Source: a bacterium (GTDB taxonomy: Bacteria; Planctomycetota; Planctomycetia; Pirellulales; Pirellulaceae). Taken from it: DNA of 64,000 nt. This document shows positions 10,596 to 57,000 of the stretch, piece by piece (positions within the stretch are counted from its first letter, which is position 1; each line of letters opens with the position of its first letter). Below the pieces are notes generated by a model that was given only the letters and a program-made list of their open reading frames with translations, did no database searches and was not told the DNA's origin. A program made the translations under genes and the position numbers. The DNA lies in NCBI GenBank assembly GCA_030430075.1, contig JAUIGN010000007.1, positions 86,458 to 150,457 on the forward strand, read 5' to 3'.

Positions 10596-10650
10596 GGAAC
10601 GAGCGACCAATCGCTTTCCCCGACGCGTGCGCCGTCCCAAGCTCCATAAG

Positions 10651-12201: not shown

Positions 12202-14067
<1,866 letters not shown>

Positions 14068-23172: not shown

Positions 23173-23180
23173 GCTGGAAG

Positions 23181-23185
23181 CCTCC
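23181..23185 (-). promoter_or_regulatory. Shine-Dalgarno sequence GGAGG for the 22171..23172 gene
   Basis: The + strand reads cctcc, 8 nt upstream of the start codon on the - strand. Confidence 0.5.
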
Positions 23186-23384
23186 GTGAGGGGTGGGTGC
23201 AATCAAGAACGGCGGTATTGCCGAGCGAGGACGACGGTCGTCGGGAAACTCCAGCGCCGCTCAACAGCCAAAAGGCCTCTGCGGTCGTCGACAAGACCGA
23301 GCGTTGCCGGGGTTCACCCCATGAATTAGAAACGAGCGGCGGCAAGGATGCAAATCCGGAGCGGGCGAGATGCCTGAGGCAGGC

Positions 23385-24737: not shown

Positions 24738-25099
24738 CGCGCTCACCAGGTTGAACGTGTCGTTCTCCGTGCGAATCAAGTCCGGGCATCCCTTCCCGCC
24801 GGGGCGGCCCCAACGCCGACCTTGCTGTTGGCTTGCCGCAACGGCATCGAGCGATGTCCGCAAATGCTTCCTGGGTCGCGTGGAACGACCCATCTCGCGA
24901 GCCAAGCGGCCGGCAGACACGGCGCCTCATCGCCACCCCGTGTGACGCTAACCGCAGTCTAGGCGTGACCTTCACCAACGACAAGCGGCAGCCCGCAGAG
25001 GAACCGAGCTCGACGAGCCATCGTGCTTCATTGTTAACTTCCGTCGCAAGATGGTGGCTCGTGTACTCCACCGCGAGGCGGTAAGGCTTCTGGAAGCGG

Positions 25100-25330
25100 T
25101 TCATGCCGCGTTCGGTTGAGCGCGCGGCGCGGTAGGGGGGGCGTGCGGTCGATGGGAGTCGTGCGGTTGATGGGAGTCGTGCGGTTGATGGGAGACCTTC
25201 GGTCGGCGGTTTCGGCGGGGTCAGAGACCCGCGCCGAGCACGAACGCGACCCGCGCCGAGCACGAACGCGATCCGCGCCGAGCACGAACGCGATCCGCGC
25301 CGAGCAGTAGTCCGCACTCCGCGCCGAGTA
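25100..25330. repeat. Intergenic repeat element B. It has tandem gtcgtgcggttgatgggagtc x3, a reverse-orientation 46-nt core (25187..25235), and tandem ccgcgccgagcacgaacgcgat x3-4.
   Basis: A direct read shows these parts. The core is the reverse complement of elements C and E. Confidence 0.8.
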
Positions 25331-25371
25331 GCAGGCAAGGCGACTCGCTGATGCTTCCTGATTTCCGTAGG

Positions 25372-25386
25372 TCATGCTATGCATGA
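25372..25386. repeat. Palindromic motif TCATGCTATGCATGA, copy 4
   Basis: A direct read shows it. It is adjacent to repeat element B. Confidence 0.7.
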
Positions 25387-25532
25387 CGTTCCCACGGATC
25401 ACGCCGAACACGACACGATGCGTCCGGGCATTCCGCCCAACCGGTTCACAAGGAATCCCCGGACCGGCCCACGCAACTTCCCGAACCAACCAACCCTCGA
25501 ACGCTCAACCCAACTTCCAACCGGCCCGTTGC

Positions 25533-26585
25533 TCAATTCGGTTCCGGTTGATTGATGAAGTCGATCAACTGTCGCAACCGGCCATGGTTGCGGCGGTTGA
25601 AATGCAGGACCAGCCGTGGTTTGTGTGCCAGGTGCACTTCATCCTGTTCGGCATCGAGGGGCGTGGTTTGTTCGATTTTCCCCTCTGTCAGTATGTCCGA
25701 GAACCGGCCATTGAGTGCTGCCATCCGGTCGGCGGACAGGGGGCGGTGGATTCGCATCACCAGCTTGCGCTTGACGTATCGCATGCTGTGGTAGTTGGAA
25801 TAGAAGTGCGTGATCTCCCGGACGGCCGCTTCATGGGAATCCGTAATCTTGTACAGATGCAGGTCCTCGTCGGAAATCATCCCGCCGTGGAGCAATTGCT
25901 CGAGTACGAAGCGTTGAAAGGTCTGCCAGAAGGTGCCGCCTTTCGCGTCCAGCAGAACGACGGGGATCACGTTCTGTTTGCCTGTCTGCATCAGCGTTAG
26001 CACTTCCAAGGCCTCATCCAGTGTGCCGAATCCACCGGGCAGGCAGGCGACCGCATCGCATTCCTTGACGAACATCAGCTTGCGCGTGAAGAAGTACTTC
26101 ATGTGCACCAGCTTTTCGTCGCCGGCGATGATCGGGTTCGATTCCTGTTCGAACGGCAGCATGATGTTCAGCCCCATTGCGTGTTTGCGGCCCGATCCGC
26201 GGTGCCCGGCTTCCATGATGCCGCTGGCGGCGCCGGTGATGACCAGCCAATCTTCTTCCGCCATCGCTCGACCCAGCTTGACCGCCTGCGCATAGCTGGG
26301 AGCCGTATCGGGCGTTCGGGCCGATCCGAAAATGGTCACTTTCCGCCGTCGCCGATAGGGTGAAAAAACCTTGAAGGCATAACGCAACTCGCGGAGTGTC
26401 CGGCTGAGGATCTTCAAATCGCCGCGGGTTGTGCCGTCGGTGGACAGTTTGTCCACGTAGTTCTTGAGGGTCTGGATCAAGTCGGCCGAGTGGTGCGGTT
26501 TGTTACGCGTCGTACGATCGCCGGGTGTCGTGGCGGCGGATGTGAGGCCGGCGGGAGAAGGAGGGTGATTTGCTGATTCGGTCAT
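25533..26585 (-). CDS. LOG family (TIGR00730, SLOG superfamily) protein with N- and C-terminal extensions. It has a PpnN-like architecture.
   Basis: It contains KVTIFGSARTP...LVITGAASGIMEAGHRG...PGGFGTLDEALE. It also has ~100 aa before and ~80 aa after the LOG core. Confidence 0.75.
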   Translation of the reverse strand: MTESANHPPSPAGLTSAATTPGDRTTRNKPHHSADLIQTLKNYVDKLSTDGTTRGDLKILSRTLRELRYAFKVFSPYRRRRKVTIFGSARTPDTAPSYAQAVKLGRAMAEEDWLVITGAASGIMEAGHRGSGRKHAMGLNIMLPFEQESNPIIAGDEKLVHMKYFFTRKLMFVKECDAVACLPGGFGTLDEALEVLTLMQTGKQNVIPVVLLDAKGGTFWQTFQRFVLEQLLHGGMISDEDLHLYKITDSHEAAVREITHFYSNYHSMRYVKRKLVMRIHRPLSADRMAALNGRFSDILTEGKIEQTTPLDAEQDEVHLAHKPRLVLHFNRRNHGRLRQLIDFINQPEPN

Positions 26586-27014
26586 GGGGCACCTGTAACT
26601 GTCAATTGCGAGCCACTCTCGTGGTCGCCGAAGCGGGCGAACCATGCCGGATGCCGATGATGAGACGGGTGCACCCGATCCTTCGCCCTCGAATTATACG
26701 TTCCGAACGTGCCAGAGCCACATCCAAATAGGGAGCCTGCAACCCTCCGGTCCGCGCCGGCTGGCCGCTTTCGAAACATGCACGCATCCTGCGGGCATTT
26801 CACAAGAGAAGACGCTCACCGGGGTCGGGTATCGAACGTCCCCGAATCCGCACACGCGGCTCTGACCGTTGCAATCCACCTGACCGGAAAGAGCCGGCCA
26901 ATGCGAGCAGCGACCGGCGCGGTCCAAGGGAGTACCTGCCGGCGGTTGGGGAGAGCAGGCGGCGCATCGCGTCTGTCGCGCGGCTTGGCAAGGTCTCAAC
27001 GCAGCTGCACGGGC

Positions 27015-38919: not shown

Positions 38920-40854
38920 ATGAATTCGGAATTGCTTAACTGGCTCTCCATACCCCTCGTGGCGTCGCTCGGCTACGAGCACGTGCCGTGGTGGGGAAAC
39001 GGGCTCTTGGCACTCTGGCTATGGGCCTTGGGAGCCAATCTGGGAAGCTTCATGAACGTGGTTGTTTACCGGGTTCCGCTGGGGCGAAGCGTTGTCCACC
39101 CGGGTTCACGCTGCCCCGGCTGCAGCCATGCGATCCAGTGGTACGACAACATTCCCGTTCTGAGCTGGACGCTGCTGCGAGCCCGCTGTCGCTATTGCAA
39201 GGTGACCATCTCTTCCCGTTACCCGTGCGTCGAGGCGCTGGTGGCGACCGTTGTTCTGGTGGTTGGGTTTCTGGGGCCGGTTTCCCTGGGGCGCAACCTT
39301 CCGCACGCGTTGCACCCTGCCGAGTTCCAATACCAGACGGCGTGGCTCTGGCTGCTGTTCGCCTATCACGTGCTGCTGCTATGCACCCTGATTTGTGCCG
39401 CCCTGATCCGTTATGACGACCAACCGACGCCCTTGCGGCTCTACCTCCCGGCACTGCTTGTCGGCTTCCTGGCGCCCATGTTGCCGCCGATGGAGATGCT
39501 CGGCAGCTTTCGTCCGGTTGCCTTTGCCGGCCTGCCGGAATTGTCCGCACGAGCGGTGGCGATCTGGGATGGCGTGACAGGACTGGCGGTCGCTGCGGCG
39601 CTTGGCTTGTTCGCATCCCTGGCGGCCAGGGATATCCGTCGTTCCACGCTGCTGTCGTTATGCGAGTTGCCGGCAGTGATGAGCGTCGGCCTGTTCCTTG
39701 GCTGGCAGGCGGCCTGCGCACTCGCTTGCTATGCGGCCGCGGCCCATTTGCTGACGGCCATCGTTACCCAAGGCACGGCCTGGGCTCGCCGCATCCCATG
39801 GCTGGCCCACCTGACCTGTGGATGCCTGTTGTTGATCCTCCTCTGGCGCCCGCTTGTCGAGCGTGCCCCGTGGCTGGGCGAGGGTGCGACCATTGCCACA
39901 TTCGGCCTGGCCGCCGGCGTCGTCGCCGCGTGTACCTACTTGACTTCGCTGATCCGTGATGAAGCGGCGGAAGAGACTTTGCCTGAACCAACGGAAAGTG
40001 TGCCCATGACCCCGGATGAAAAACTGGCAGCCATCTTGAGTTCACCCAGCTATCGGCTGGCGGAACTGGATACCGAGTTCCTGCAACGCGATGAACTTCG
40101 CCCGGTGAGGATGCAGTTGGAGCTGCTCAAGCCCGAGATGGCATTGGAGGAACAAAACATCAACTCCACGATCGTGGTCTTTGGCGGCACGCAGGTCGTC
40201 GAGCCGGCCGCGGCGGAGGCGCGACTGGCTGCAGCGCGGCAGGAACTGGCCGCAGACCCGGACGATCCGGCTCGGCAGCGAGCCGTTTCACGTGCTGAAC
40301 GAATCCTGGCCAAGGCGGGGAGCTATGACGCGGCACGCGAGTTCGGGAAACTGGTCTCTGCTTCCTGCCAGGTCGATCAACGTTGCCACTATGTGATCAC
40401 GACCGGCGGCGGACCAGGCATCATGGAGGCCGCCAATCGGGGCGCGCACGACGCCGGTGCGAAGTCGATTGGCTTGAACATTACCCTGCCCCACGAACAA
40501 ACGCCGAATCCATACATCACGCCCGCCCTCTGCTTCCAGTTTCACTACTTCGCGCTGCGCAAATTGCACTTCCTGTTCCGCGCGCGGGCGCTCGTGGTCT
40601 TTCCCGGAGGCTTCGGGACGCTTGACGAATTGTTCGACGCGTTGACGTTGCGGCAGACCGGGCGGATGCAGGCAATTCCCATCATCCTCTACGGTCGTGA
40701 GTATTGGAACCGCGTGATCGACTTCGAATTCCTGGCTGATGAGGGCGTCATCGCCGATGAGCACCTCGATTTGATCAGCTATGCCGAAACACCCGCGGAA
40801 GCCTGGTCGCAGATTCAAGCGTTCCATGAGGAGACGGCGGCCGTAGATCGCTAA
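38920..40854 (+). CDS. Fusion protein with an N-terminal prepilin-peptidase-like (A24) membrane domain and a C-terminal LOG/SLOG (TIGR00730) domain
   Basis: The N-terminus LGSFMNVVVYRVP...SRCPGCSHAIQWYDNIPVLSWTLLRARCRYCKVTIS is the zinc-ribbon N-domain of type IV prepilin peptidases. It has multiple TM helices. The C-terminus YVITTGGGPGIMEAANRG...PGGFGTLDELFDAL is a LOG core. The reading frame is continuous. Confidence 0.7.
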   Translation: MNSELLNWLSIPLVASLGYEHVPWWGNGLLALWLWALGANLGSFMNVVVYRVPLGRSVVHPGSRCPGCSHAIQWYDNIPVLSWTLLRARCRYCKVTISSRYPCVEALVATVVLVVGFLGPVSLGRNLPHALHPAEFQYQTAWLWLLFAYHVLLLCTLICAALIRYDDQPTPLRLYLPALLVGFLAPMLPPMEMLGSFRPVAFAGLPELSARAVAIWDGVTGLAVAAALGLFASLAARDIRRSTLLSLCELPAVMSVGLFLGWQAACALACYAAAAHLLTAIVTQGTAWARRIPWLAHLTCGCLLLILLWRPLVERAPWLGEGATIATFGLAAGVVAACTYLTSLIRDEAAEETLPEPTESVPMTPDEKLAAILSSPSYRLAELDTEFLQRDELRPVRMQLELLKPEMALEEQNINSTIVVFGGTQVVEPAAAEARLAAARQELAADPDDPARQRAVSRAERILAKAGSYDAAREFGKLVSASCQVDQRCHYVITTGGGPGIMEAANRGAHDAGAKSIGLNITLPHEQTPNPYITPALCFQFHYFALRKLHFLFRARALVVFPGGFGTLDELFDALTLRQTGRMQAIPIILYGREYWNRVIDFEFLADEGVIADEHLDLISYAETPAEAWSQIQAFHEETAAVDR

Positions 40855-40879
40855 GGAGCTAAGGATGCGCGACGCCGGC

Positions 40880-41170
40880 TATTGGCTGGGAGACCTGACG
40901 GTCGTGGGGCGTGCGGGGTCGGGAGACCCGCGCACAGCGCCGTTCCAGCTCGCGCACAGCGCCGTTCCAGCTCGCGCACAGCGCCGTCCCAACCCGCGCA
41001 CAGCGACGACTCCTGCACGGCGCGGGTCTCTGACCCCGCCGAAGTTCCAGCTCGCGCACAGCGCCGTTCCAACCCGCGCACAGCGCCTTTCCAGTTCGCG
41101 CACAGCGACGACTCCTGCTCGGCGCGGGTCTCTGACCCCGCCGAAACCGCCGACCGCAGGTCTCCCGCGC
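40880..41170. repeat. Intergenic repeat element C. It is a tandem cgcgcacagcgccgttccagct-like array (~7 units) with one truncated core (41015..41045) and one full 46-nt core (41118..41165).
   Basis: A direct read shows these parts. It lies between convergent genes. Confidence 0.8.
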
Positions 41171-41181
41171 CTCGCTGCATG

Positions 41182-42027
41182 TCAAGGGGCGAGCCGGTAA
41201 AAGCGGCTGGCCGTGCCGCCGAAGATCATGTCGAGCTCGTCGCTACCGAGCTGCCCGACGATTTCCCGCAACGCGCCGTGTACCTCTGCGTAAGTCGCGG
41301 CCAGTTCGCAGACCGGCCAATCGGAACCGAACATGCATCGCTGGGGACCGAACGCCTCCAGCGCGGTGTCGACGTAAGGACGCAAGTCGGCCGGCTTCCA
41401 GTCATTCCAATCCGCCTCAGTGACCATTCCGGACAACTTGCAGTAGACATTGGGATGGCGGGCGGCGGCCCGCAGATCGTCCCGCCAGCCGGCGGTTGTC
41501 CCCGCCGCGATCAACGGCTTGGCCAGGTGGTCAATCACCAGCGGCAAGTCGGGCAGCGAATTGGCCAGCGGGGCGGCGTGCTTCAAGTGCCTGACGTAAA
41601 ACAGCAGATCGAAGGGAACCTGGTGCTTCTCCAGCACCTGCAAACCTCGGACGACGTCCGGGCGGATGATGAAGTCGTCGTCGGGTTCGTCTTGCGTGAC
41701 GTGCCGAATACCGACGAACTTGGGGTGGTCCTTGAACTCCAGCAGCTGGGATTCACACGTCTCGCTGGTCAGGTCAACCCACCCGACGACGCCCGCGATG
41801 AAATCGTATTGCTCGGCCAGCCGCAAGACCCAACGATTTTCAGCCACATCGTGCTGGGTCTGTACAAACACCGAGCCATCAACGCCGGTCTGCGCCAGTT
41901 GCGGTGCCAGGTCCTCCGGCAGGTAGTCGCGACGGATCGGTTCCAGGCCGGGCGTGTCGAGCCATCCGAAGTTGAAGGGCTGGCTAAGTTGCCAGAAGTG
42001 CTGATGGGCATCAATAACGTGAGACAT
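41182..42027 (-). CDS. Amidohydrolase-2 family protein, a candidate sugar lactonase such as L-fuconolactonase
   Basis: It has MSHVIDAHQHFW, the TIM-barrel metal-dependent hydrolase start. The lactonase role is inferred only from the neighbourhood. Confidence 0.7.
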   Translation of the reverse strand: MSHVIDAHQHFWQLSQPFNFGWLDTPGLEPIRRDYLPEDLAPQLAQTGVDGSVFVQTQHDVAENRWVLRLAEQYDFIAGVVGWVDLTSETCESQLLEFKDHPKFVGIRHVTQDEPDDDFIIRPDVVRGLQVLEKHQVPFDLLFYVRHLKHAAPLANSLPDLPLVIDHLAKPLIAAGTTAGWRDDLRAAARHPNVYCKLSGMVTEADWNDWKPADLRPYVDTALEAFGPQRCMFGSDWPVCELAATYAEVHGALREIVGQLGSDELDMIFGGTASRFYRLAP

Positions 42028-42044
42028 GATTCAACTCCTCTCTC

Positions 42045-42105
42045 GTTCCACGAACACAACGGTTCGGCGCGGGTCTCCGAAACCGCCGACTGAAGGTCTC
42101 CGTTT
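42045..42105. repeat. Intergenic repeat element D, a partially deleted 46-nt core
   Basis: The sequence is ggcgcgggtctccgaaaccgccgactgaaggtctccg. Confidence 0.6.
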
Positions 42106-42279
42106 CCCATTGTGACTACGGTCCGTTGGTCCGGGTGATTGTCGACGGCAGGTTCCAGTGCGATGCAAGGCTGGATTACATCATGCACCGCATGACTTTC
42201 GGAATGACGAAAGATCGCCTGCCGTACGTCACCCGCAGCAACGATGGCCGACTCCAGACAGGCTTGGTTGACGGGTTTC

Positions 42280-42726
42280 TCAATCCATGCGAACGCCGAT
42301 CGTGAGCAACACGTTCGCGAATCGCTGTTGGTCCGCAGTCTGGATCGTAAGAATATGGTCCGGTGTCGCGACGGCGTCGTAGAAGGCCCATTTTTCGATC
42401 GGTTCGAGCTCCAATTCGACGCCCGCCTCCTGCATGGTCTGGCGGTAATCCGACCACACGGGCGGGTCTTCCGTCAATGCGTACTGACCGGTGGTTTCGT
42501 ACATCATCGTGTTGACCCCTTCGACCGGCAGCGCCGAGAGGACCGCTTGCAGCACCTGGTTGCAGGTGACCACGCCCGGCATGAGGTTGAGGTGCACCAA
42601 CCGGGCGTGGGGGCCCCGCTTGGAGGACGCCGGGTAGTTGCCGTCGGCGATGAGCACTTTGCCGTGATGGCCGCCGGCTGCCAGAATCGCGTTGATTTCT
42701 GGATGAATGAGCTGATGTTTGAGCAC
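42280..42726 (-). CDS. RbsD/FucU family sugar mutarotase
   Basis: It reads MLKHQLIHPEINAILAAGGHHGKVLIADGNYP, which is the RbsD/FucU fold. Confidence 0.8.
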   Translation of the reverse strand: MLKHQLIHPEINAILAAGGHHGKVLIADGNYPASSKRGPHARLVHLNLMPGVVTCNQVLQAVLSALPVEGVNTMMYETTGQYALTEDPPVWSDYRQTMQEAGVELELEPIEKWAFYDAVATPDHILTIQTADQQRFANVLLTIGVRMD

Positions 42727-42875
42727 GTGAAAGCCTCCTGATTGGATGACGAATCGGCGGATGCGGCCGGCCAGGATTGGTATCGCGGCGAGCGGGTGAA
42801 GGCGTGGATCGCCCAGTTGGGGAGCGGCATCGGCACGTCATCCGCACAGCACGCCCCGAGTGCCGGGAACGGTCC

Positions 42876-44159
42876 TTACATTCCGTCGGTCAGCGCGACG
42901 AGATGGCGACTGAAATGGTCGGCCAGGACGTCTCGATAGGTCCCCGGATTGGCCTCCAGGACGGTCCGCACAGCAGGCCCGAACTCCGGATGAGTCAGTA
43001 CGGAACCGAATGTGCAGTGGAGGATCTGGCGGCCCGGTTCGGTAAAGCCCTTGCCGGCAGGCACGTCGTCCCAGCGTTCCAGGTAGACTTGCTCGAGCTC
43101 CACCGCGTCCGCGATCTGGTTGCCGGGTTTGACCGTGTCGTTGGTGGCGGCGACGTGGTAGGTTGCCTTGTCGGTATCGTATCGCGAACGGCCGAAGTCG
43201 ATGATTTGTCGAAACAGGGGCTCGTCATGCCTGGCGACGACGCGAAGTGCTTCGAGGTAGCTGGTGCCCGCCGTCTTGACGTGGAACCGGCCCTTGGTGG
43301 CACGCGCCAGGGCCGTGTAGATCGAGACTTTGTCGGAACCGGAGTGCAGGCTCAATTTGTAGGGGCCCAACTGGTCGGCAAGTGCCGCATGTTCGTTGAG
43401 TGATGCTTCCAGCTCCGTCAGGTCTCCCTTGTAGTCGACCCCTTTCTCAAAGTCGCCGATGAAGCGGGGCGCCAGGCTGACGAGCTTCATTCCCCGGCTG
43501 ACACACTGGTCCGCGATGATGAAATGCTCGGCCAACGTGGTCGGCTGATCCGTTTCATCGACGCTCAGTTCGATCTCATGATCGCGGCCCGCCGCGTCGT
43601 GGACGGCGCGGATATGATCGGCCAACGCGATGGCATGATTGATCGCCGGTCCGTATTTGACGGCGCACCGCATGCAGGCTTGCTCATCCAAGGCCACCAC
43701 GGTTCCTGTGGCCAGTTTGACTTGGCGGCCCAGGTAGCTTTCAAACCAGTCAATCTCGTCGCGCACCTCGGCAAACTTTTCGCGGAGCGTAGGCTCGTCG
43801 TAAGTGTCGGCCTGTTCATCCACGTTATCCGAAGGGTCGATGGTAAAGAAAGTGAAGCCGGCGGCGAAGGTGCGATCGACATCTTCCGTCGTCTTCAAGT
43901 GATCGGCGTCGGCGCCTGTCTTGCCCGTCCACCCGGCTGCCTGCATTCCATCGAGGGCGTCTTTCATGACCTCTTCCGGACTGCGGCTGGTTCGCGCCAT
44001 TTCTCGGATCGACTGTTGGGGATAGATCGGTTCGATGCCGGCGCCGGACCGCTGCATCGCCGCCACGTGGCCGGGGGTGGCCAGACCGATGCGGTCGCCG
44101 AAGCCGAAGCTGGGAGCCAGTCCCAGCGTGACGCAGGGGGTAGGATTGGGAGTGCTCAT
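42876..44159 (-). CDS. GatZ/KbaZ/UxaE-like TIM-barrel protein, a sugar(-acid) epimerase or aldolase-subunit family. The call is tentative.
   Basis: It shows weak resemblance (GADADHLKT, TIDPSD) to the tagatose-bisphosphate aldolase non-catalytic subunit family. It is embedded in a sugar-catabolic cluster. Confidence 0.3.
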   Translation of the reverse strand: MSTPNPTPCVTLGLAPSFGFGDRIGLATPGHVAAMQRSGAGIEPIYPQQSIREMARTSRSPEEVMKDALDGMQAAGWTGKTGADADHLKTTEDVDRTFAAGFTFFTIDPSDNVDEQADTYDEPTLREKFAEVRDEIDWFESYLGRQVKLATGTVVALDEQACMRCAVKYGPAINHAIALADHIRAVHDAAGRDHEIELSVDETDQPTTLAEHFIIADQCVSRGMKLVSLAPRFIGDFEKGVDYKGDLTELEASLNEHAALADQLGPYKLSLHSGSDKVSIYTALARATKGRFHVKTAGTSYLEALRVVARHDEPLFRQIIDFGRSRYDTDKATYHVAATNDTVKPGNQIADAVELEQVYLERWDDVPAGKGFTEPGRQILHCTFGSVLTHPEFGPAVRTVLEANPGTYRDVLADHFSRHLVALTDGM

Positions 44160-44254
44160 GAGTCATTCTTTCTTTGCGTAGGTGGCCGCTGCGGGTGCGG
44201 CGGGACGGAAGTTGGGTCGGGAGAGGGGGAGCGTCGTGATTCCGTCGATTGCGG

Positions 44255-45073
44255 CTACTCCTTGAAGAACCTGTTGTATGCTGACATCGTCTGGGCTGCC
44301 GCCGCATCCGGGTCCGGGTAGGGGAACGCTTCGGCGGAGGCATACTTGTCGTAACCGATTTCCTTCAGGGCGGCGGCGATCGGGGCGTAATCCATATGTC
44401 CCAACCCGGCCGGCCGGCGGTTGGAATCGACGAAGTGGAGGTGACCGATGTGCCCTTTGCCAGCTCGGATGGCGGCTGCCAGATCGGCTTCCTCGATGTT
44501 CATGTGGAACAGGTCCGCCAACAATTGCACGTTGTCCGTCTGCAGCGATTTCATCAGGTCGACGCCGTCTGCGACCGTCGTGATCAAGTTCGTTTCGTAC
44601 CGATTGAGGGGTTCGTAGATCAACGGCACGTCGTGTTTGCGAGCGTATTCGCCGAGCTCGTTGAGCGCTTCGCGCAGCAGGTCGAGCGCCGCTTCCCGGC
44701 TCAACGCGCCGCCCCACCTGCCTTGCATCGACCCGATAATGGCGGGGGCTCCATGCGGCCCGCCGAAGTCGATGATGGAGCGGATGAACTCTTTCGCCCG
44801 AGCCCTTTCGTCCGTATCGGTCGACGTCAAGCTGAGGCCATGCTTGACCATCCCCGCGCCCGTGCCGACGGCCGCCAGGTTGAGCGAATGCTGGGTCAGC
44901 AGCTGCTGCAGCTCGACGGGATCGACCGCGGTCGCTGACGGGGCGAAGATTTCGATGGCGTCGAAACCTAGCTCCTGCGCCTTGCGGCAGGCGGCCGGCA
45001 GGTCGTCCCAAAACACGAACGGGCCGCCGCGTGCTTCATTGACCAGGCTGACGGTAACGGCGGATGGAATCAT
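44255..45073 (-). CDS. Sugar phosphate isomerase/epimerase, xylose-isomerase-like TIM barrel
   Basis: It has the AP-endonuclease 2/XylA-like TIM pattern (FDAIEIF, HIGHLHFVDSN). The start is at MIPSAVTV. Confidence 0.75.
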   Translation of the reverse strand: MIPSAVTVSLVNEARGGPFVFWDDLPAACRKAQELGFDAIEIFAPSATAVDPVELQQLLTQHSLNLAAVGTGAGMVKHGLSLTSTDTDERARAKEFIRSIIDFGGPHGAPAIIGSMQGRWGGALSREAALDLLREALNELGEYARKHDVPLIYEPLNRYETNLITTVADGVDLMKSLQTDNVQLLADLFHMNIEEADLAAAIRAGKGHIGHLHFVDSNRRPAGLGHMDYAPIAAALKEIGYDKYASAEAFPYPDPDAAAAQTMSAYNRFFKE

Positions 45074-45114
45074 GGTATGCTCCGGTGGTTTCTGGTTGCG
45101 TCGTGTGACGGTGC

Positions 45115-46140
45115 TCAACACACCTCAATGACCGCTTTAATAACACCTGTCTCGGGGCGGGTGTACGTCTCGAAGTTTTCGATGACCTGATCGAAGGCGA
45201 CGCGGTGTGTGATCCACGGTTCGGTGTTGATTGTCCCGTCTTCAATCAGGCGGATGATGCGGGCGAAGTCGGCCGGGAGGGCGTTCCGCGAACCTTTGAT
45301 GGTCATCTCCGGCCGATGCAGGGCCGGGTGCGGGAAGGCAATCTCTTCGGTGGTAATACCGACGTAAACCAGCTCGCCCGTGTGCGCCACATACTGGAGG
45401 GCATTCGACATGGACCGCGAGTTTCCGGTCGCATCGGTCACGACTTCGTACATGTCGCCGCCGGTGATCTCCTTCATCTGTTCTAGCTCGCTTCCATCCC
45501 CCTGAAAGACCACCGTGTGCTCGATTCCGTAGGTCTGGCGACAGAACTCCAGACGCGAGGGAACCATGTCCATCACGGTGATCGAGGCGCCGGTCAGCCG
45601 GGTGAACTCGAGCGTGGCGAGGCCGATCGGACCGGCGCCGATAATCAACGCATGCGCTCCCTCACTCGGCGCGCCGCGGTCGCAGGCATGGCAGCCGATG
45701 GCCAGGGTTTCCACCAGGGCCAGTTGTTCAAACGACAGCTTCTCGGAAGCGTGGAGCTTGTCCGCACGGATGATAAACCGTTCGCAGAGCCCGCCGTCGA
45801 TCATGACGCCGATCACGTTGAGGCTGGCACAACAGTTACCGTTGCCCTTCCGGCAAGCGAAGCAGTGCCCGCAATTCATGTACGGTTCGACACTGCACCG
45901 TGCGCCGGCCGTCACGTTGGTGACGCCGGTACCGACTTCCAGAACCTCGACGCCCAGCTCGTGGCCCGGGACGCGGGGGTAGCGGAAGAAAGGCATTTTT
46001 CCCAGATAGCCGCTGTAGTCCGTTCCGCAGATACCCATCCGGTGCGTGCGCACCAGCGCCTCGCCGGGACCGGGTGAGGCCGGTTCATCAAGGTCAACGT
46101 AGCGAAACTGTTTCGGTTCTTCCAAACGAATGGCGCGCAT
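45115..46140 (-). CDS. Zn-dependent alcohol/polyol dehydrogenase of the MDR family, sorbitol/threonine-DH-like
   Basis: It has GICGTDYS, the catalytic Zn site GHELGVEV, the structural Zn site CGHCFACRKGNGNCC, and the GAGPIGL NAD motif. The start is at MRAIRLEEPK. Confidence 0.85.
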   Translation of the reverse strand: MRAIRLEEPKQFRYVDLDEPASPGPGEALVRTHRMGICGTDYSGYLGKMPFFRYPRVPGHELGVEVLEVGTGVTNVTAGARCSVEPYMNCGHCFACRKGNGNCCASLNVIGVMIDGGLCERFIIRADKLHASEKLSFEQLALVETLAIGCHACDRGAPSEGAHALIIGAGPIGLATLEFTRLTGASITVMDMVPSRLEFCRQTYGIEHTVVFQGDGSELEQMKEITGGDMYEVVTDATGNSRSMSNALQYVAHTGELVYVGITTEEIAFPHPALHRPEMTIKGSRNALPADFARIIRLIEDGTINTEPWITHRVAFDQVIENFETYTRPETGVIKAVIEVC

Positions 46141-46286
46141 CGGATCGGTCTCCTGGATGTACTGTTGGTGATTGGGGGCGTTGGCGACCGGGGGCACCGC
46201 GGGACGATTCCGGACGGTTGCGGTTGAGCCGATCCCTGGCCGGGCCGGCCCGCCCCACGTGGTTCGGCCGCATCCAACGGTGCGAC

Positions 46287-47246
46287 TCAGGCGTCGACCG
46301 TGGGGGGATCGTTGTTCTCCGGGCGGCCCTCGACATAGAACCAGTTGTGGATCGGCTTGAGGATTTCCTTGACTTCCGCCAGCAGTTGTTGGTCCATCGG
46401 TTCGGCGGCCCAGGCCACCCACTGCGCGACGCGGTCCGGATTGGCCGAACCGGTAACGCAGGTGGTCATGTCCGGGTTGGCAAGGGAAAACTGCAGGGCC
46501 AGCTTGGCGATATCAACCCCTTTGCCGGCGCAGTGATCGGCTGCCTGTTTGGCGATCTCCCGCACCTTGGGTGTCGCCTTGTGCCAGGCGGGTAAAGGGG
46601 CGGCCGTGAGCAGCCGGGCGGAGAACGGCGCGGCATTCATCAGGCCGACTCCTTTCTCACGGCAGATCGGCACCAACTCGAGGGCCATATCGTTTTGCAA
46701 CGTGTAGTGGTTGTACGTCAGCAGTACATCGATGTCTGCTCGGTCCAGCACATACTTGAACATCTTCATCGGATAGCCGCTGACGCCGATGTAGCGGACC
46801 TTGCCTTTTTCCACTTCCTTGCGCAGGGCCGGCAGCGTCTCCTCGACGATCTGTGACATTTCGACGAATTCGAGGTCATGGCAAAGTACGATGTCCAGGT
46901 GCTCGACCTTCATCCGTTCCAGCGAGATGTCGACGCTTTCCGCGACCCGCCGGGCACTGAAATCGAAGTGCGCCCCGGCATAGCGACCGAGCTTCGTGCC
47001 CAAGTAGTAGCGGTCGCGAGGGATCTCGGGAAGCACTCGCCCCAGCAACATTTCACTCATCCCGCGCCCGTAGAAGGGCGAAGTATCGATGAAGTTCATG
47101 CCCAGGTCGATTGCCACGTGGACGCTGCGGCAGGCCTCATCGAGATCGATATGACGAAACTCGGCCCCCAGCGACGACGCACCGAACGACAGCGGGGTGA
47201 GCTTCATGTCGGTCGTCCCCAGCTTTCTGGTTTCCATCGTTGTCAT
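46287..47246 (-). CDS. Aldo/keto reductase
   Basis: It has IDTSPFYGRG and the YxxxK catalytic tetrad context. It is similar to D-threo-aldose/L-fucose 1-dehydrogenase-type AKRs. Confidence 0.85.
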   Translation of the reverse strand: MTTMETRKLGTTDMKLTPLSFGASSLGAEFRHIDLDEACRSVHVAIDLGMNFIDTSPFYGRGMSEMLLGRVLPEIPRDRYYLGTKLGRYAGAHFDFSARRVAESVDISLERMKVEHLDIVLCHDLEFVEMSQIVEETLPALRKEVEKGKVRYIGVSGYPMKMFKYVLDRADIDVLLTYNHYTLQNDMALELVPICREKGVGLMNAAPFSARLLTAAPLPAWHKATPKVREIAKQAADHCAGKGVDIAKLALQFSLANPDMTTCVTGSANPDRVAQWVAWAAEPMDQQLLAEVKEILKPIHNWFYVEGRPENNDPPTVDA

Positions 47247-47376
47247 CTCCTGCTTGGCGTTTCGGGGGGCTGCGGCCGATTCGGTCGTCTTCTCATGTCG
47301 GGCATCCTGCCGCGGACAGCCGCCAATCCATGGCGGTCGCTATGCACGAATCGAAGCCGTTATGCTCCCTTCCAAA

Positions 47377-47391
47377 TCATGCGGTGCATGA
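47377..47391. repeat. Palindromic motif TCATGCGGTGCATGA, copy 5
   Basis: A direct read shows it. It lies in the intergenic space between the AKR and mutarotase genes. Confidence 0.7.
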
Positions 47392-47486
47392 CGCCATAGG
47401 TTTTGGCATGAGAACGGGAATGTGTCACCAACAACTTCCCGCACGCACGTACCGCGGAATTGAGGCGAGTGATTCTGGACTCGTTC

Positions 47487-48527
47487 TTAACAAACCGAGA
47501 ACCTGTGTACCGTGACCTGTTCGAACGATTCGCCAGGCTTCAAGATCGTGCTGGGAAAGGCCCCGTGATTGGGTGAATCGGGAAAATGCTGTGTTTCCAG
47601 GCAGAATGCTTCGTGCCGCCCGAAACCTCCGTGTGCTGCGGAACCGTCCAGAAAGTTTGCCGTGTAGAGTTGAATTCCGGGCTGCGTGGTGTGAATTTCC
47701 AGCACCCGACCGGACGTAGGATCTTCAACGCGGGCTGCCTGCTTCAGACCGTTGTCCTGGCCGGACAAGGCGAAACAGTGGTCGTAGCCTTGCGGTTCGG
47801 CTTCGATCTGGTCAAGTCTCGCGCCGAGTTGCTGCGGCGTGGTGAAGTCCAACGGCGTGCCGGCGACCGGCTTCAGTTCGCCGGTCGGAATCAGGCCCTC
47901 GTCCACCGCCAGGTAGCGGTCGGCAAACATCGTAACCCGATGATCCAGTACATCACCGGCACCCGCGCCGCGCAGGTTCCAGTAGTTGTGGTTGGTCAGG
48001 TTGATAGGTGTCGCCTGGTCGGTTTTCGCCGTGAATTCGACCCGTAACTCGTCTTCGCTGGTCAGAACGTAGGTGACCGCGACATCGAGATTGCCCGGGT
48101 AGCCTTCTTCACCGGCAACGCTGCGGCGGGTGAACTTGACGCCTACCGCTGAGGCTGTTTCGATGGGCTCGGCCCGCCAAACGTGTTTGTCGAAGCCGAC
48201 GTCGCCTCCGTGCAGATGGTTCGGTCCGTTGTTGGTGGCGAGTTGGTATTGCTGGCCGTCTAGCGAAAAGCGGCCCTGGGCGATCCGGTTGCAGAATCGG
48301 CCGATCGTCGAACCGAAATGGGGGTGCGGCCCGAGGTAGCCGGTCAGGGATCGGAAACCGAGATTGATATTTGCGAGTTGGCCGTCACGGTCGGGCGTCT
48401 CGACATCCACGACCGTGGCACCATAGTCGGTCAGCGAGAGACGCAACCCGCGCGAGTTCGTGCAGGAATACAGGGTGACGTCCCGGCCGTCGGGCATGGT
48501 GCCGAAAGACGAGGTGGCAATCTTCAT
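47487..48527 (-). CDS. Aldose 1-epimerase (galactose mutarotase)
   Basis: It has NGPNHLHGG and HNYWNL, with the FDxxxW motif of mutarotases. The start is at MKIATSSFG. Confidence 0.85.
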   Translation of the reverse strand: MKIATSSFGTMPDGRDVTLYSCTNSRGLRLSLTDYGATVVDVETPDRDGQLANINLGFRSLTGYLGPHPHFGSTIGRFCNRIAQGRFSLDGQQYQLATNNGPNHLHGGDVGFDKHVWRAEPIETASAVGVKFTRRSVAGEEGYPGNLDVAVTYVLTSEDELRVEFTAKTDQATPINLTNHNYWNLRGAGAGDVLDHRVTMFADRYLAVDEGLIPTGELKPVAGTPLDFTTPQQLGARLDQIEAEPQGYDHCFALSGQDNGLKQAARVEDPTSGRVLEIHTTQPGIQLYTANFLDGSAAHGGFGRHEAFCLETQHFPDSPNHGAFPSTILKPGESFEQVTVHRFSVC

Positions 48528-48829
48528 GGTTGCATGTGCCTTTATTGGTGGCTGCAGCTGAAGGGAGTCGCGGTGCGGCCTGCGAAGCGGCCATTCCTGA
48601 GCGGGATACTGGAGGAACAGGATCAGGCTGTCCCCCTGGAAGTCGGGGGCGCCGCTGCCGGGATCTGCAGCACCCAACAGGGTGTAATGAGGTGAAAACG
48701 AGCGTTTCCCGGTCACCAGGCCGTCGCGAGAACTAACAAAACGGGCACGACGCGGGTCACCCATTCCGACCGGGACCGCGTATTATGTTCCTCGGGGCCG
48801 GCACCGTCCAGGATGGGTCCGGTCCAGGA

Positions 48830-49075
48830 TGGGGCTCGTTGGACCTGTCGGCCGTCTGTCGCGCGGCGGTTGTCAGGCGACCTGCTCGCCGCGCGTCTCC
48901 GACTCCTTGCTCGGCGCGGGTCTCCGACGCTCGGCGCGGTTCTCCGACGCTCTGCTCGGCGCGGGTCTCCGACCCCTCGCTCGGCACGGGTCTCCGACCC
49001 CTAGCCCGGCGCGGGTCTCCGACGCTCGGCGCGGGTCTCCGACCCCGCCGAAACGGTTGACCGAAGGTCTCCAAT
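48830..49075. repeat. Intergenic repeat element E. It is a tandem array of cggcgcgggtctccgac(g/ccc) (~6 units) ending in a full 46-nt core (49030..49075).
   Basis: A direct read shows this. The tandem unit is the 5' half of the core. Confidence 0.8.
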
Positions 49076-49257
49076 TCCTATTTTTAACGAGCCGCACGAG
49101 GGGCGACGTGAACCCGTAATCCGAGCCGGAGGCGGTTCATCCAGGCGGCATGAGCTGGAACGCAGCGCCGCTGTGGCACTCGCCGCCCTTCAGTCCCCCC
49201 AAAAAATTCAAAAACCCTGGCAAGATTTTTCGACGCGCGGCAACTATTGAGCTACTT

Positions 49258-49824
49258 ATGACGTCGCCCACCACATCCGCCGCTTCACAACGCCCCTCGG
49301 GGAAGGCCGACTGGACCGCGATCCTGGCCGATTGCGACCGTTGGCTGCGGACCGTCGTCTTCTCGCGGCTTCGGGACCGGCACGCGACCGACGAGGTGAT
49401 GCAGGAGGTTGCTCTGGCGGCCGTGCGGCAGGCGGCACCCCTCCGCGACCAATCCAAGGCGGCGCCCTGGCTGTACCGTCTGGCGGTGCGGCAAGTGCTG
49501 TTGTATCGGCGTCGGAAAGGCCGGCAGCGGAAATTGACAACTCATTACGCGGAGCGCTCCACGACCGAGGTACCGCCCGACGCCGATCCGCTCGATTGGC
49601 TGCTAGCGGACGAACGCCGCGACCTGGTGCGGCTCGCGCTGCGAAACCTGGCAACTCGGGACATGGAAATCCTGCTCTTGAAATACACGGAAGATTGGTC
49701 ATACCACGAGATCGCCGCAAAGTTGGGAGTCAGCCACAGTGCGGTGGAGGCGCGTCTCCATCGAGCTCGGCGGAGACTACGGGCAGAGCTGGCGATGTTG
49801 AAAGTGATCGAGGCACCCATATGA
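49258..49824 (+). CDS. RNA polymerase sigma-70 factor, ECF subfamily
   Basis: Region 2 reads PWLYRLAVRQVL and region 4 reads SYHEIAAKLGVSHSAVEARLHRARRRL. The start is at MTSPTTS. Confidence 0.85.
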   Translation: MTSPTTSAASQRPSGKADWTAILADCDRWLRTVVFSRLRDRHATDEVMQEVALAAVRQAAPLRDQSKAAPWLYRLAVRQVLLYRRRKGRQRKLTTHYAERSTTEVPPDADPLDWLLADERRDLVRLALRNLATRDMEILLLKYTEDWSYHEIAAKLGVSHSAVEARLHRARRRLRAELAMLKVIEAPI

Positions 49825-54006: not shown

Positions 54007-57000
54007 TCAATCGACAAAGAACTCCGCAAAAATCGCATCCATGGCGGCCTTGGCGAGCGGCGTGGCTTTCTCCGCTGCCAGGATGTCCGTGACCAGATCA
54101 TCTTCGACCTCGTCGCCCGGCTCCCGCACGTCGTCCATCTGCAGAATGGCAACGTCTGCGAACGCGGCATTGCCCGGCGTCGGACGTGTTGGCGTTTCGC
54201 CGCAGTCTTCCACAGCGGTCCGACCGACGACTGCAGTATCCTCGGCGGCCTGCAGGTCCGCCAGCAGGCGGCCTCGGTGATCCGCGGTCAGATCGCGGCC
54301 TGCCACCGCCCCGAAGGCGCCACGGTTCGCTTCGCCTTCTCCCTCGATGGCGGCGGCGTTCAGTCGATTAATGACCCGTAGTGCGTCGTGGGCCGAAAGG
54401 GCCCGATCACCGTTCGTATCGTAGAAGAACGAATCGGCGCCTGCATCCGCTGAAACTCCGGTCAGTGATTGCGAGCGGTTCAGCGCGTTGATGACCAGCA
54501 GGGCATCCATCGGCTCGACAACGCCGTTGCCGTTGACATCGGCTGGGTCCGCAAGGTTGTGACGTGGACTCACACTGGACGTGTCCTGAAACTCGGCGGG
54601 GGAAGCCCCGCTGGAGACCGTGATGGGCACCGAAAACTCGGACGTATTTCCCAGGGCGTCCGTCGCGGTCGCCACGATCTGGTCGCCAGCCTCGACCGCG
54701 GCACTGGCAAGCGATACGCTCTTGAGCTTGTTTTCCGTGTCGAGTGTATACAGATCGCTGCCGAGATGGCTGCGTCCTTCCCGGCCCGACGGGTCGGCGG
54801 CGTAGAAGTCAATCGTCAACTCGTATGCCGAGTGAGCTTGCAAGGAGGGAACTTCGTAGACAAATTCCAGCGTTCCTTGCAGACGCGCTTCACGCAGAAC
54901 GGGGAAATTCTGCAATTCGTTGGGACCGTCGTCCATGTCCTGGTTGTTCGCGACCGCGTCGTTGGCGGTCGTGCCGTCGGCATTCAAATCGATCGACAAG
55001 CCAGCATTCGAGAACATCGTGTTCCCTTGAATCCGATTCCCGTGGGCCGTGGATCCGGTGACTGTGACTCCCGACCGCGCGTGATGGGCGATGACATTTG
55101 CGGCGCCCTTGCTGGTACCGCCAATCAGCGTGTCGCTCGCCTGATCGACCCAGACACCCCACTGGCCATTGGGCAGCGGCGACGTCTCGTCGGACTGGGT
55201 CCCGATCAGGTTCCCCAACACACGATTACTGCTGGCAGACGCGCCTGCGACTCGCACACCGCCGTAGTCATTGCCGGAGATTAGATTTCCTTCTTCGAAT
55301 CCGGCTCCGCCGACCGAATTCTTGGGGGCGCTGATGTAGACGCCGGTACTGGTGTTGCCCAGGTCAAGCGTGCTCGAATGATCTGTGCCAATGATGTTCC
55401 CCAAAATTCTGTTTTCCGAGGCGGTCGGGCCGGTGATCGCCACACCAAACAGACCGTTGTCGGAGATGACGTTCCCCGCGCCTGGGAAATCGCCACCGAT
55501 CGTATTCGCATTGGCGTTGCTGATCGCCACACCACTCTTGGCGTTCCCCAGGTCTTCGTTGTCCTTGGGGCGTGTGCCCTGGTCATCGGTGCCGATGAGA
55601 TTTCCTTGGACCGTATTGGCCGTGGTATTGGCGCCGACCAGCAGCACGCCGTCGGCACCGTTGGCCGAGATCACATTGCCCGCCGTCCTGGACTGACCGC
55701 CGATCGTGTTTTCACGGGCGCCTGCGCCGATGCGAACGCCCGAGCCGGCGTTGCCCAGCGGATGACTGCCGTTCATGCCGAGCCCGATGAGATTGCCCTC
55801 AATCCGGTTGCCTTGGGCGCCGGCCCCTGCCACGACGACGCCATGATTCCCATTGGCCGAGATGACATTGGTCGCACCGCGCGTGGTGCCGCCGATAATC
55901 GTGTTCTGGGCGTTGGCCAACTGCAGGCCGGAGTCGACGTTCGGCAACGGGGCCGTCCCCGTGATGTCGGTGCCGATGTAGTTGCCCTGCACGACATTGC
56001 CGCTCGCCAGAAAGGAAGCGATCCGGACACCAAACGACGCGTTGCCTGAAATCACGTTGCGCTGGCCGGCCGTCAGGCCGCCGATCCGATTGCCGGGCGC
56101 TTTCCAGATCAAGACGCCGGTATTTCCATTGCCAACCGCAGCGGTGCCGGTCACGTCGGTTCCGATCAGGTTACTCGTCACCACGTTGCCGGTCGACGTC
56201 TCGTCGAGAATGGCGAGGCCTGTGGCGACGTTGCCTGAAATGACATTGCCGGCAGCCGCATCCATGCCACCCACGGTGTTATTCGACGCCTCGCGAATGA
56301 CCAGGCCGAACGAGCCATTGCCGACGGCGGTCGTGCCGGTCGCGTCCGTGCCGATGAAGTTTCCGACGACCTGATTCCCGCTGGCCAGTGGACCCGAAAT
56401 GAAGATGCCGCTCTTGCGGTTGCCCGAGACCACGTTCCCAGCGCCGTCGTCGGTGCCGCCCAACGTGTTGTGCGGTGCGTTGAAGAGATTGATCCCTGTC
56501 TGACGATTGGACAAGGCAGTCGATCCGCTCACATCGAGCCCCACCAGGTTGCCCTGGATCACATTGCCGTTCGCCGTCGCGCCTGTCACAAAGATCCCGC
56601 CAATGGTGTTGCCTGAGATGACGTTTCCTCCGCCAACCGCGCCGATCGTGTTGCCCGCCGCGCCATCGATCGAGATGCCGTTGGCTCCGTTTCCTCGTGC
56701 GAGGAGGCCCGTTGCATCGGTGCCGATCAGGTTGCCGACGATGGAGTTGCCCGTCGTTCCGGCACCGACGAGGGTCACACCGCCCGCTGCATTGGCGGAG
56801 ATGACGTTGCCGGAGCCGATCGTGTTCTCGCTGGCGTCCTGGTCGATGCGAACTCCAACGCCGGTGTTGCCCCGACGCGTCGTCCCATCCGGGCCGAGGC
56901 CGATCACGTTGCCCTGGATGACGTTCCCCGCCGATCCGGAACGCGATACGTAGATACCGTGGCCACCATTGCCGGAGATCACGTTCGCAGCGTCGGCCGA

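Follow-up and report, generated by a model that had tools for sequence, protein, structure and literature searches.

Hairpin-forming intergenic repeats with 5' mini-arrays in the Pirellulales: a probable family of selfish interspersed elements

Several intergenic regions in a 64-kb stretch of a Pirellulaceae genome (assembly GCA_030430075.1, contig JAUIGN010000007.1, positions 86,458 to 150,457 of the forward strand; hereafter the window) contain a short hairpin-forming core sequence, often accompanied by small tandem arrays. What kind of element is this, how did it reach these positions, and what are the arrays that stand next to it? A preliminary description of the window had likened the core to repetitive extragenic palindromic (REP) sequences, bacterial interspersed mosaic elements (BIMEs) or miniature inverted-repeat transposable elements (MITEs). 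This likeness is upheld by the present analysis, as the core is multi-copy, intergenic and hairpin-forming, occurs across species, is missing from orthologous sites of related genomes and forms palindromic composites elsewhere. We consider it probable, at roughly two chances in three, that the core defines a Pirellulales-specific family of selfish, hairpin-forming, non-coding interspersed repeats of the REP, BIME, REPIN (REP doublet) and small-MITE class, and that the arrays are secondary local duplications. The family is apparently undescribed, and of an ordinary kind.

The 64-kb window was searched with an nhmmer profile built from 36 distinct core variants (E<1e-3), which found nine copies at six sites where none is expected by chance. 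All seven copies listed previously were real and placed correctly to within a few bases, and two further ones were added, at 10768-10816 and 40889-40935, both on the minus strand. In pattern searches of the window the full 46-nt consensus, with at most three mismatches allowed, matched at 25190-25235(-) and 41121-41166(+), compared to 0.00 matches expected from shuffled sequence. The 5' half pattern GCGCGGGTCTC gave 17 matches against 4.4 expected, and the 3' half of the consensus gave 5 against 0.07. Partial 5' core copies were detected with the same profile at 48909-49023.

In its own orientation the core reads (G)(C/T)TCGGCG-C-GGGTC-TCY-GACCC-CGCCGAA-ACCGCC-GACC-GAA-GGTC-TCC, a module of about 48 nt that consists of hairpin 1, hairpin 2 and a GGTCTCC tail. 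Both of the short hairpins noted earlier exist, but the first is longer on folding than had been described: it occupies 28 nt, with a 12-bp stem, one bulged base and a TCY loop, and is predicted in eight of the nine foldable copies. Hairpin 2 has a 4-bp stem (GACC gaa GGTC) and is predicted in most copies. Isolated cores have folding z values of about -2.1 to -2.8.

Three subtypes are distinguished by the outer stem of hairpin 1. Subtype 1 has CGGCG/CGCCG and the 5' start (G)(C/T)TCGGCGC. Subtype 1b has GTGCG/CGCAC and starts TGTGCGC; it is represented in the window by the copies at 21972 and 40889 and also occurs in a locus from another genome (L045). Subtype 2 has GTGGC/GCCAC with the bulge on the other arm, is found in other genomes only and starts with GTGG, which is base-paired there. 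The tip, GGTC-TCY-GACC, is invariant across the three. When the 36 sequences were aligned, hairpin-1 pairing was intact in 88.4% of cells compared to 80.6% in column shuffles, a value reached in 0 of 500 shuffles, and 38 cells carried double changes where 13.3 were expected; the counts reflect about three lineages, and so they tell that pairing was kept, not how often evolution tested it. Hairpin 2 is invariant and therefore gives no covariation information.

The copies in the window differ considerably from each other. The best preserved, 25191-25238(-), is of subtype 1 and has no mismatch to the consensus (E=2.2e-15), and 49025-49072(+) is likewise a full subtype 1 core (E=1.7e-14). The copy at 10768-10816(-) is single, of type 1, with a degenerate outer stem (E=1.1e-9) and short degenerate inverted flanks, ACGACGG ... 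CGGTCGT. Degenerate inverted flanks also surround 42062-42101(+) (E=5e-7), which carries an internal 9-nt deletion: CCCCGCCGA was lost between two CCGA direct repeats, i.e. by a microhomology deletion. These flanks, of 7-9 bp, are the only terminal inverted repeats in the window, and the other copies have none.

The remaining copies belong to two inverted heterodimers. In the tail-to-tail one the left half is 21972-22018(+), of subtype 1b with the outer stem GTGCG/CGCAC (E=2.1e-10), and the right half is 22062-22110(-), of subtype 1 with CGGCG/CGCCG and the loop ACT (E=1.3e-11), the spacer being 43 nt. The other dimer is head to head. Its left, outward-facing end is 40889-40935(-), a diverged subtype 1b copy (E=8e-4) that folds at -14.4 kcal/mol (z=-2.7), and its right, outward-facing end is 41118-41165(+), a full subtype 1 copy with one mismatch (E=2e-14). 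The two pair with each other when the entire intergenic region is folded, and in the 40889/41165 pair the cores themselves could serve as terminal inverted repeats. Between them lies 41017-41045(+), a subtype 1 copy truncated at its 3' side after hairpin 1 (...CGCCGAA; E=2.3e-6, model positions 3-31), which is the first copy within a 102-nt duplication.

The core is also present outside this window. An exact core 22-mer was found at at least 69 loci, many of them at contig ends, and among the matches listed all were in at least 11 species-representative metagenome-assembled genomes (MAGs) of Pirellulales, Pirellulaceae or 'Planctomycetaceae'. These MAGs come from different studies, and the gene contexts are planctomycete ones in every case. 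Core identity between genomes is about 94%, falling to about 90% when the 22 positions set by the search are left out, while orthologous genes are 71-81% identical. Beyond the ascertained copy, further sites occur about once per 65 kb in the fetched loci, compared to six in the 64-kb window. Three IMG/VR viral contigs carry the core as well (L159 5797-5840, L160 9270-9313 and L158 2361-2382). L159 consists of a genuine head module of a phage, with genes for portal, protease and major head/capsid proteins (PHROGs), in which the core follows the major head protein gene at a distance of about 70 nt and in sense. This phage core is preceded by a run of TTGTCAG heptamers, and a similar run of GTCAG-containing repeats was seen before the core of L068.

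Modules occur singly, as inverted heterodimers or within an 18-22-bp outer stem. In the last form the core is enclosed by GAACCGCTAACAAAACCG, GAGGCCCTAACAAAACNG or GAGGCGGTAACAAAACTG with the complement opposite, 13 of the 14 copies measure exactly 89 nt, and one MAG holds many near-identical copies. Five pairs of the 18-bp outer stem (columns 3, 4, 6, 7 and 14) show compensatory changes between species. In the dimer form subtypes 2 and 1 stand tail to tail, about 52 nt apart, inside an inverted repeat CGCAGGAAATNATCTACC that is bordered by TTA/TAA flanks. Complete elements fold as a three-way junction (89-nt form, z=-8.5) or a four-way junction (dimer, z=-11). All 20 inverted dimers, including the two in the window, join two different subtypes (1/2 or 1/1b), with no homodimers, and in 17 type 1/2 dimers the hairpin-1 spacing is fixed at 52-55 nt. 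In the L066 dimer each half folds alone, and only the tails and outer arms pair.

The elements are restricted to intergenic DNA. For the window, genes were placed with a GC3-based gene map and Pfam hits on the flanking genes, which bore out the earlier statement that all copies are intergenic. When the fetched loci are included, 80 of 88 cores lie outside predicted genes in DNA that is about 80% coding. A separate observation concerns L056, in which two cores (1130-1194) fall within a 1,530-codon open reading frame (ORF) of a crude gene prediction, due either to an in-frame insertion or to an over-extended ORF. Convergent spacers are mildly favoured, with 17 of 56 classified cores (about 30%) compared to 19% of spacers. 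In co-directional gene pairs 14 cores are in sense and 15 in antisense, and this lack of orientation bias argues against a strand-specific RNA role.

Comparison with related genomes shows the elements to be insertions. Four related metagenomic or MAG loci have kept the gene order FucU - amidohydrolase, with the latter convergent to A24/LOG. The spacer between amidohydrolase and A24/LOG is 328 nt long and filled by the element in the window, whereas it is 116 nt long with no core-like sequence in L071, and in L075 the gene ends overlap. Similarly, the FucU/amidohydrolase spacer is 253 nt and element-filled in the window compared to 19-22 nt in L071 and L075. In another of the related loci, L073, the orthologous convergent spacer (4852-5234) holds a different composite, with inverted repeats (CTAGAGCGCATTTCA...) around three 52-nt tandem units containing CCCGAAGCGTGAGCGAGGG. 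It resembles the CnGA-footed class 3 hairpins of Planctomyces limnophilus (PMC6006769, Table S1). The presence of an unrelated repeat at the same place indicates that these positions are colonised independently.

The arrays had been described as 3-7 tandem units ahead of each copy. This is the case at four of the six sites, but not at 22110(-), 10816(-) or 42062(+). At 21858-21984(+) six 20-nt units GAACCTGTTGTGCGCGGGTC (Tandem Repeats Finder, TRF: period 20 x 6.3, 86% matches), each joining a short linker to the 5' arm of hairpin 1, run into the full core at 21972. At 25226-25340(-) there are 22-nt units, CGTTCGTGCTCGGCGCGGGTCG in core orientation (TRF 25226-25306, x 3.7, 98% matches), with two degenerate 5'-arm units beyond 25306, up to about 25340. 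The same core has a 3'-side array, 25142-25205(-), of an 18-nt unit x 3.6, ACTCCCATCAACCGCACG in core orientation (TRF, 89% matches), which spans the junction of core and flank and contains the last 4 core bases and 14 flank bases. At 40929-41107(-) the 5' arm of the 1b core on the minus strand recurs in units of 22 nt, which read AGCTGGAACGGCGCTGTGCGCG on that strand: 40929-41005 (22 nt x 3.5) is the 5' array of copy 40935(-), and further 22-nt units follow at 41044-41107 (TRF). The 102-nt duplication, 40942-41043 / 41044-41145 (TRF 2.0 copies, 92%), interrupts and doubles these arrays, and the array ahead of 41118(+) belongs to the opposite-strand copy 40889-40935. At 48883-49046(+), finally, seven units of 20-26 nt (TRF periods 25/45/70) are cores truncated inside or just after hairpin 1, ending ...TCCGAC or ...GACCCCT.

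The units had been taken as sequences that differ between loci and usually contain the 5' end of the core. They are not a separate kind of unit, but 3'-truncated core copies that share one 5' boundary. In core orientation each opens with a short linker, after which the core begins, e.g. GAACCTGTT-GTGCGCGGGTC or CGTTCGT-GCTCGGCGCGGGTCG. The linkers, made of locus-specific linker or flank bases, are nearly identical within one array and different between arrays. When the window and the at least 69 loci were surveyed for full cores with adequate flank, 3'-truncated copies were found upstream in 24 of 58 and downstream in 5 of 58. The truncation points are spread, with peaks after GGGTC, where the 5' arm ends, and after CGCCG, where hairpin 1 ends. 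At one locus (L064) the repeat unit is 69 nt and takes in flank and outer repeat. A CRISPR array was considered and rejected, as the units abut via 2-12-nt linkers that are themselves repeated, with a period of 17-26 nt. The two ORFs named as spurious translations of the arrays, 24604-25338(-) and 40882-42093(+), both exist; the second runs antisense through the amidohydrolase gene (Pfam E=4e-57) and is for this reason regarded as spurious.

How such elements could have spread can be outlined from these features. Probably an enzyme encoded elsewhere copies them in trans into intergenic DNA, or formerly did so. Its substrate might be a folded single strand, read by its shape and by the GGTC-TCY-GACC tip, in a manner similar to that of the REP-associated tyrosine transposases (RAYTs) and other HUH enzymes of the Y1 type, a suggestion to which we give somewhat less than an even chance. 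The main alternative for this step, a DDE transposase that would move the 89-nt form via its terminal inverted repeats, appears possible but doubtful. The mini-arrays would be secondary, as local tandem duplications that restart at the 5' boundary of the module and have no fixed stopping point, the ends of the 5' arm and of hairpin 1 being the commonest. Slipped-strand or template-switch errors of replication at the hairpin, followed by expansion like that of variable-number tandem repeats (VNTRs), are the most likely cause. That duplication took place in several rounds is indicated by the higher-order periods (45, 70 and 102 nt), and together with the 69-nt unit of L064, the junction array at 25142-25205 and the deletion in copy 42062 these fit repeated local duplication or slippage at the hairpin. 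Such an element needs no function in the cell, and incidental effects on neighbours, at mRNA 3' ends or in the promoter region of a gene for an extracytoplasmic function (ECF) sigma factor, are possible.

The organisation is closely similar to that of REPs and BIMEs of Enterobacteria and Pseudomonas, which are short imperfect palindromes, extragenic and in high copy number, that occur singly, as inverted dimers and in clusters. As in BIMEs, the dimers combine two opposed subtypes (Y/Z there, 1/2 or 1/1b here) and form mosaics with other motifs, a likeness of organisation and not of homology to the E. coli BIMEs. In sequence there is no similarity to REPs and BIMEs. A GT[AG]G/CGTC foot is absent from the main subtype, the module contains a second mini-hairpin and a conserved tail, the arrays are made of 3'-truncated units rather than whole palindromes, and no core-flanked RAYT was found. 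The combination of array and core had been thought unusual, but tandem repetition of this sort is less so than supposed: in REP clusters tandem reiteration together with flanking DNA has been described (PMC3733652), and reiteration is present beside planctomycete RAYT genes (L164).

REPINs are REP doublets that form hairpins (Bertels and Rainey 2011, as cited in PMC3733652) and have been interpreted as non-autonomous elements moved as single strands. The elements studied here resemble them in having two inverted hairpin units with a short spacer in one long structure, in which correlated changes keep the pairing. In contrast to REPINs, the two halves differ in hairpin 1 and fold separately, and a cognate RAYT was not found. 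Planctomycetes, above all Rhodopirellula baltica, are reported to have many Y1 transposases with their own repeat families (PMC3733652). Among the repeats reported are GTAG and CGTC REPs and the GGGGWSAS inverted repeats of RAYT-like 'TIRYT' genes (Di Nocera et al. 2013, PMC3733652), and a class 3 Y1 family of Planctomycetes is associated with CnGA-footed hairpins (PMC6006769). The core matches no repeat sequence given in these two papers, and no matching family was found for it among planctomycete REP or MITE descriptions in the literature searched, nor does its sequence occur in any of those papers. Like the TIRYT repeats it has a stretch, GGGGTCAG, that fits GGGGWSAS, whereas the RB2408-like genes are flanked by AAAAGG(T/G)GTCAGGAACCTTTT and not by the core.

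Similarities are also seen with two further groups of short repeats. Small bacterial MITEs of the Correia, ERIC, RUP and SMAG types are non-coding, intergenic sequences of about 90-230 nt with terminal inverted repeats and form long hairpins. The 89-nt form is like them in its fixed length and T(A/T)A flanks, and unlike them in that the interior is more conserved than the termini and one interior is found within different termini. The mycobacterial interspersed repetitive units (MIRUs) and VNTRs of mycobacteria are complete 46-100-bp units, often in frame between the genes of an operon. Like the present arrays they are short runs in which a unit common to the whole family stands at many intergenic loci, each locus having its own copy number; they differ in that truncated 17-26-nt pieces are here joined to one full copy and a hairpin module defines the family.

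A transposase that could serve as partner was sought in several ways. With an RB2408-like query (PMC3733652, Additional file 5) 7,995 homologues were obtained, and 80 metagenomic loci (L078-L157) were examined. The core occurred in only two near-identical contigs of the 80, 1.7 kb from the gene, and the genes carry their own AAAAGGTGTCAGGAACCTTTT inverted repeats instead, so that this candidate was rejected. The rba11751-like RAYT was rejected since it is flanked by GTAGCTGAATTCGCCAGAATTCAG REPs (L161-L165) and not by the core, and the CnGA-footed repeats of the class 3 TnpA(Y1) since their sequence, CCGAGCCGCGACCGTAAGGGAGCGG, is different (PMC6006769, Table S1). When Y1 proteins were compared by tblastn with all core loci, no core-flanked gene was found; in L013 a Y1 paralogue lies 1.2 kb from an element with another gene between, and L062 gave a match to the C-terminal domain only. 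A regular-expression search for the HUH...Y motif over the ORFs of the core loci found nothing, and in an all-vs-all blastp of 2,896 such ORFs only GFO/IDH/MocA oxidoreductase paralogues and repeat-made ORFs recurred.

Some motifs may nevertheless hint at an HUH/Y1 enzyme. The GGGGTCAG already mentioned lies on the reverse strand of hairpin 1, although the match to GGGGWSAS is only 8 bases long; subtype 2 starts with GTGG; in L010 the 13-mer GGGTCTCCGACCC also makes up the body of an inverted REP pair tagged with GTAG; and RAYT genes of related planctomycetes stand between canonical GTAG REPs with tandem arrays. As to the rejected candidates themselves, the RB2408-like Y1 genes are 60-70% identical across genera, and the self-complementary AAAAGG(T/G)GTCAGGAACCTTTT stands 36-105 nt upstream of them and also downstream; Di Nocera et al. 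probably had this repeat before them in their GGGGWSAS inverted repeat. Upstream of the RAYT gene in L164 there is a head-to-tail tandem array of at least six GTAGCTGAATTCGCCAGAATTCAG REPs, and contigs with rba11751-like RAYT genes are often only 0.7-1.3 kb long, suggesting that assemblies break in the flanking repeats.

Several observations weigh against the interpretation as selfish REP-like repeats with secondary arrays. No mobilising enzyme was found flanked by cores in the Y1 loci sampled (80 + 5 loci, from two planctomycete families only, other Y1 paralogues being unsampled) or in about 0.5 Mb of core loci, and the unpaired 5' foot GT[AG]G or CGTC is absent from the main subtype. No target-site duplication could be established: in 10 of 14 copies of the 89-nt form both 3-nt flanks are T(A/T)A, but these are direct in 7 and inverted in 3. 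The heterogeneity of the window copies does not point to recent activity in this genome, and a search of the collections for close strains, in which presence or array length might vary within a species, found none, the next relative of a flanking protein being 83% identical. The very strong conservation of the core from one species to the next, within differing outer frames and relative to the termini, could point to a host function instead. As regards the arrays, for which slippage is the proposed step, several junctions are without obvious microhomology, and simple slippage does not explain the strong 5' bias.

A possible, although unlikely, alternative is that of ordinary MITEs, which a DDE transposase of an IS5/Harbinger-like kind with a TNA target would move via their terminal inverted repeats, the core being an internal passenger. 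The constant 89-nt length, the 18-22-bp terminal repeats and the T(A/T)A on both sides would be expected of such an element. The near-identical copies in one MAG suggest a burst, and the dimer form too has long inverted repeats with TTA/TAA flanks. However, the termini vary by compensatory change while the interior is constant, which is the opposite of typical MITEs, and one core is found within at least two unrelated outer frames. Most copies in the window have no terminal repeats or only degenerate ones, and direct 3-nt flanks do not exceed the chance rate (7 vs 3). Furthermore, no parent insertion sequence with these ends was present in the roughly 0.5 Mb of core loci, genome collections having received no dedicated scan.

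The core could alternatively be a functional or cis-acting RNA, e.g. a small RNA, a terminator or a structure that stabilises mRNA 3' ends, which is kept by selection and has spread by recruitment. We regard this as quite improbable. The compensatory changes that preserve hairpin 1 and the outer stem, the very stable composites, the 94% identity of the core across species within different frames, the share of copies at convergent gene ends and the sense position of the phage core behind the major head protein gene are all in agreement with it. The stem covariation is, however, equally expected from a single-stranded DNA intermediate of transposition, orientation is random, copies are found in divergent promoter regions and near start codons (42062 and 49025), and truncated, deleted and variably reiterated copies are tolerated. 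No match to Rfam was obtained at gathering thresholds over the whole window, and permissive scans (40700-42300 and one 89-nt element) gave only chance-level hairpin matches. In the terminator search no terminator-like site coincided with a core, and no T run follows the hairpin on either strand. No Pfam family is built on the six-frame ORFs that run through the elements.

A further proposal, of low probability, concerns the arrays in particular. The core may be the recognition hairpin of a further HUH/Y1 paralogue or of another single-strand nuclease, which would copy from the 5' boundary and normally stop at the hairpins. The arrays would then be footprints of abortive or re-initiated copying, rolling-circle-like or one-ended, and not of slippage, and across the Pirellulales no fewer than two outer frames, as well as phages, would have taken up the module. 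The strong conservation of the interior relative to the termini leaves room for this proposal.

It is very unlikely that the arrays are iteron-like sites for a regulator, a nucleoid protein or a replication protein with GCGCGGGTC(TC) as the unit. They do consist of 3-7 intergenic direct repeats of 17-26 nt with the same 9-11-mer in each, and one lies directly upstream of the ECF sigma-factor gene. Against such a role, the period is 18, 20, 22 or 20-26 nt and gives no constant helical phasing, the neighbouring core is plainly recognisable in the units, which are copies of it truncated at varying points, more than half of the cores have no array, and the neighbours are unrelated housekeeping genes. 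An assembly artefact or contamination, the latter raised as a concern in the preliminary description, has a negligible probability: many loci end inside a core and assemblers can mis-size tandem arrays, but an independently assembled Logan contig of ERR3428548 (L077), itself broken inside a core at each end, is 100% identical to window positions 41137-49049 (about 7.9 kb) and reproduces the 48883-49046 array and the deleted copy 42062 identically, the core had no match in a plasmid/vector check, it is found in the at least 11 planctomycete MAGs of different studies, and the copies differ while preserving base pairing.

The preferred interpretation, a family of selfish REP-like repeats, leaves the general picture of bacterial interspersed repeats unchanged. 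It adds an example from the Planctomycetes-Verrucomicrobia-Chlamydiae (PVC) superphylum with BIME-like heterodimers, compensatory stems, an interior more conserved than the termini and 5'-anchored truncated arrays. If a core-recognising enzyme were found, the last two features could show the mode in which REP-like elements are copied and form clusters. In practice, the repeats break planctomycete assemblies, as many contigs end inside a core, and they yield spurious ORFs that enter protein databases. They also mark intergenic hot spots where different repeat families accumulate.

The six sites in the window lie in various gene contexts. Three are between convergent genes identified by Pfam. 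The site at 10.8 kb is between a metallo-beta-lactamase-fold gene, 9732-10595(+), and a VWA gene, 10834-11976(-); that at 22 kb between HemD-HemE, 19861-21825(+), and DUF3500, 22171-23202(-); and that at 41 kb, where the composite fills the spacer, between A24-peptidase/LOG, 38920-40854(+), and amidohydrolase, 41182-42027(-). Two are between co-directional genes. At 25.2 kb the core has the same sense as the LOG-family gene, 25533-26645(-), and the RoxA-like cytochrome c gene, 23385-24920(-), and at 42.1 kb it is antisense, 35 nt upstream of the amidohydrolase start. The site at 49 kb is divergent, between the genes for aldose 1-epimerase, 47487-48764(-), and the ECF sigma factor, 49150-49824(+) (Pfam), and core 49025-49072 ends 78 nt upstream of the start of the latter. 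A promoter scan gave a weak promoter-like match that overlaps the 3' end of this copy. The match, at 49057-49084(+), is sigma-70-like (TTGACC, 16 nt, TATTTT; 9/12), is partly formed by the variant 3' core half GGTTGACCG and stands at a distance of 66 nt upstream of the gene for the ECF sigma factor; little is known of promoters in planctomycetes.

The window also contains a second family of repeats, which is built like a canonical REP. It has a GTAG foot and the palindrome GTCATGC-nn-GCATGAC, with 5 matches compared to 0.02 expected, at 558-578(+), 10646-10695(+), where it forms a 29-nt tandem pair, 25367-25387(+) and 42180-42200(-). At three of these four sites a core, in every case oppositely oriented, is found at a distance of 27-130 nt, and no exact match was found in 160 loci fetched from other genomes.

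Repetition is also seen within coding regions of the window. The ORF 17421-18215(+) has an N-terminal signal-like segment followed by about 12 tandem Cys/Gly/Lys-rich units GGCGGACQKDGKG, with DNA periods of 24, 36, 60 and 123 nt, and could encode a secreted metal-binding or structural repeat protein. Inside the gene 12202-14067(-) a 12-nt unit GGGCTCCGGTTT is repeated about 16 times (13702-13886), and the coding strand would give a linker of low complexity, (K-P-E-P)n-like. The giant ORF 54007-63867(-), 3,286 aa long, which reaches the window end, has internal repeats of about 189 nt (63 aa) and is probably a large repetitive surface protein.

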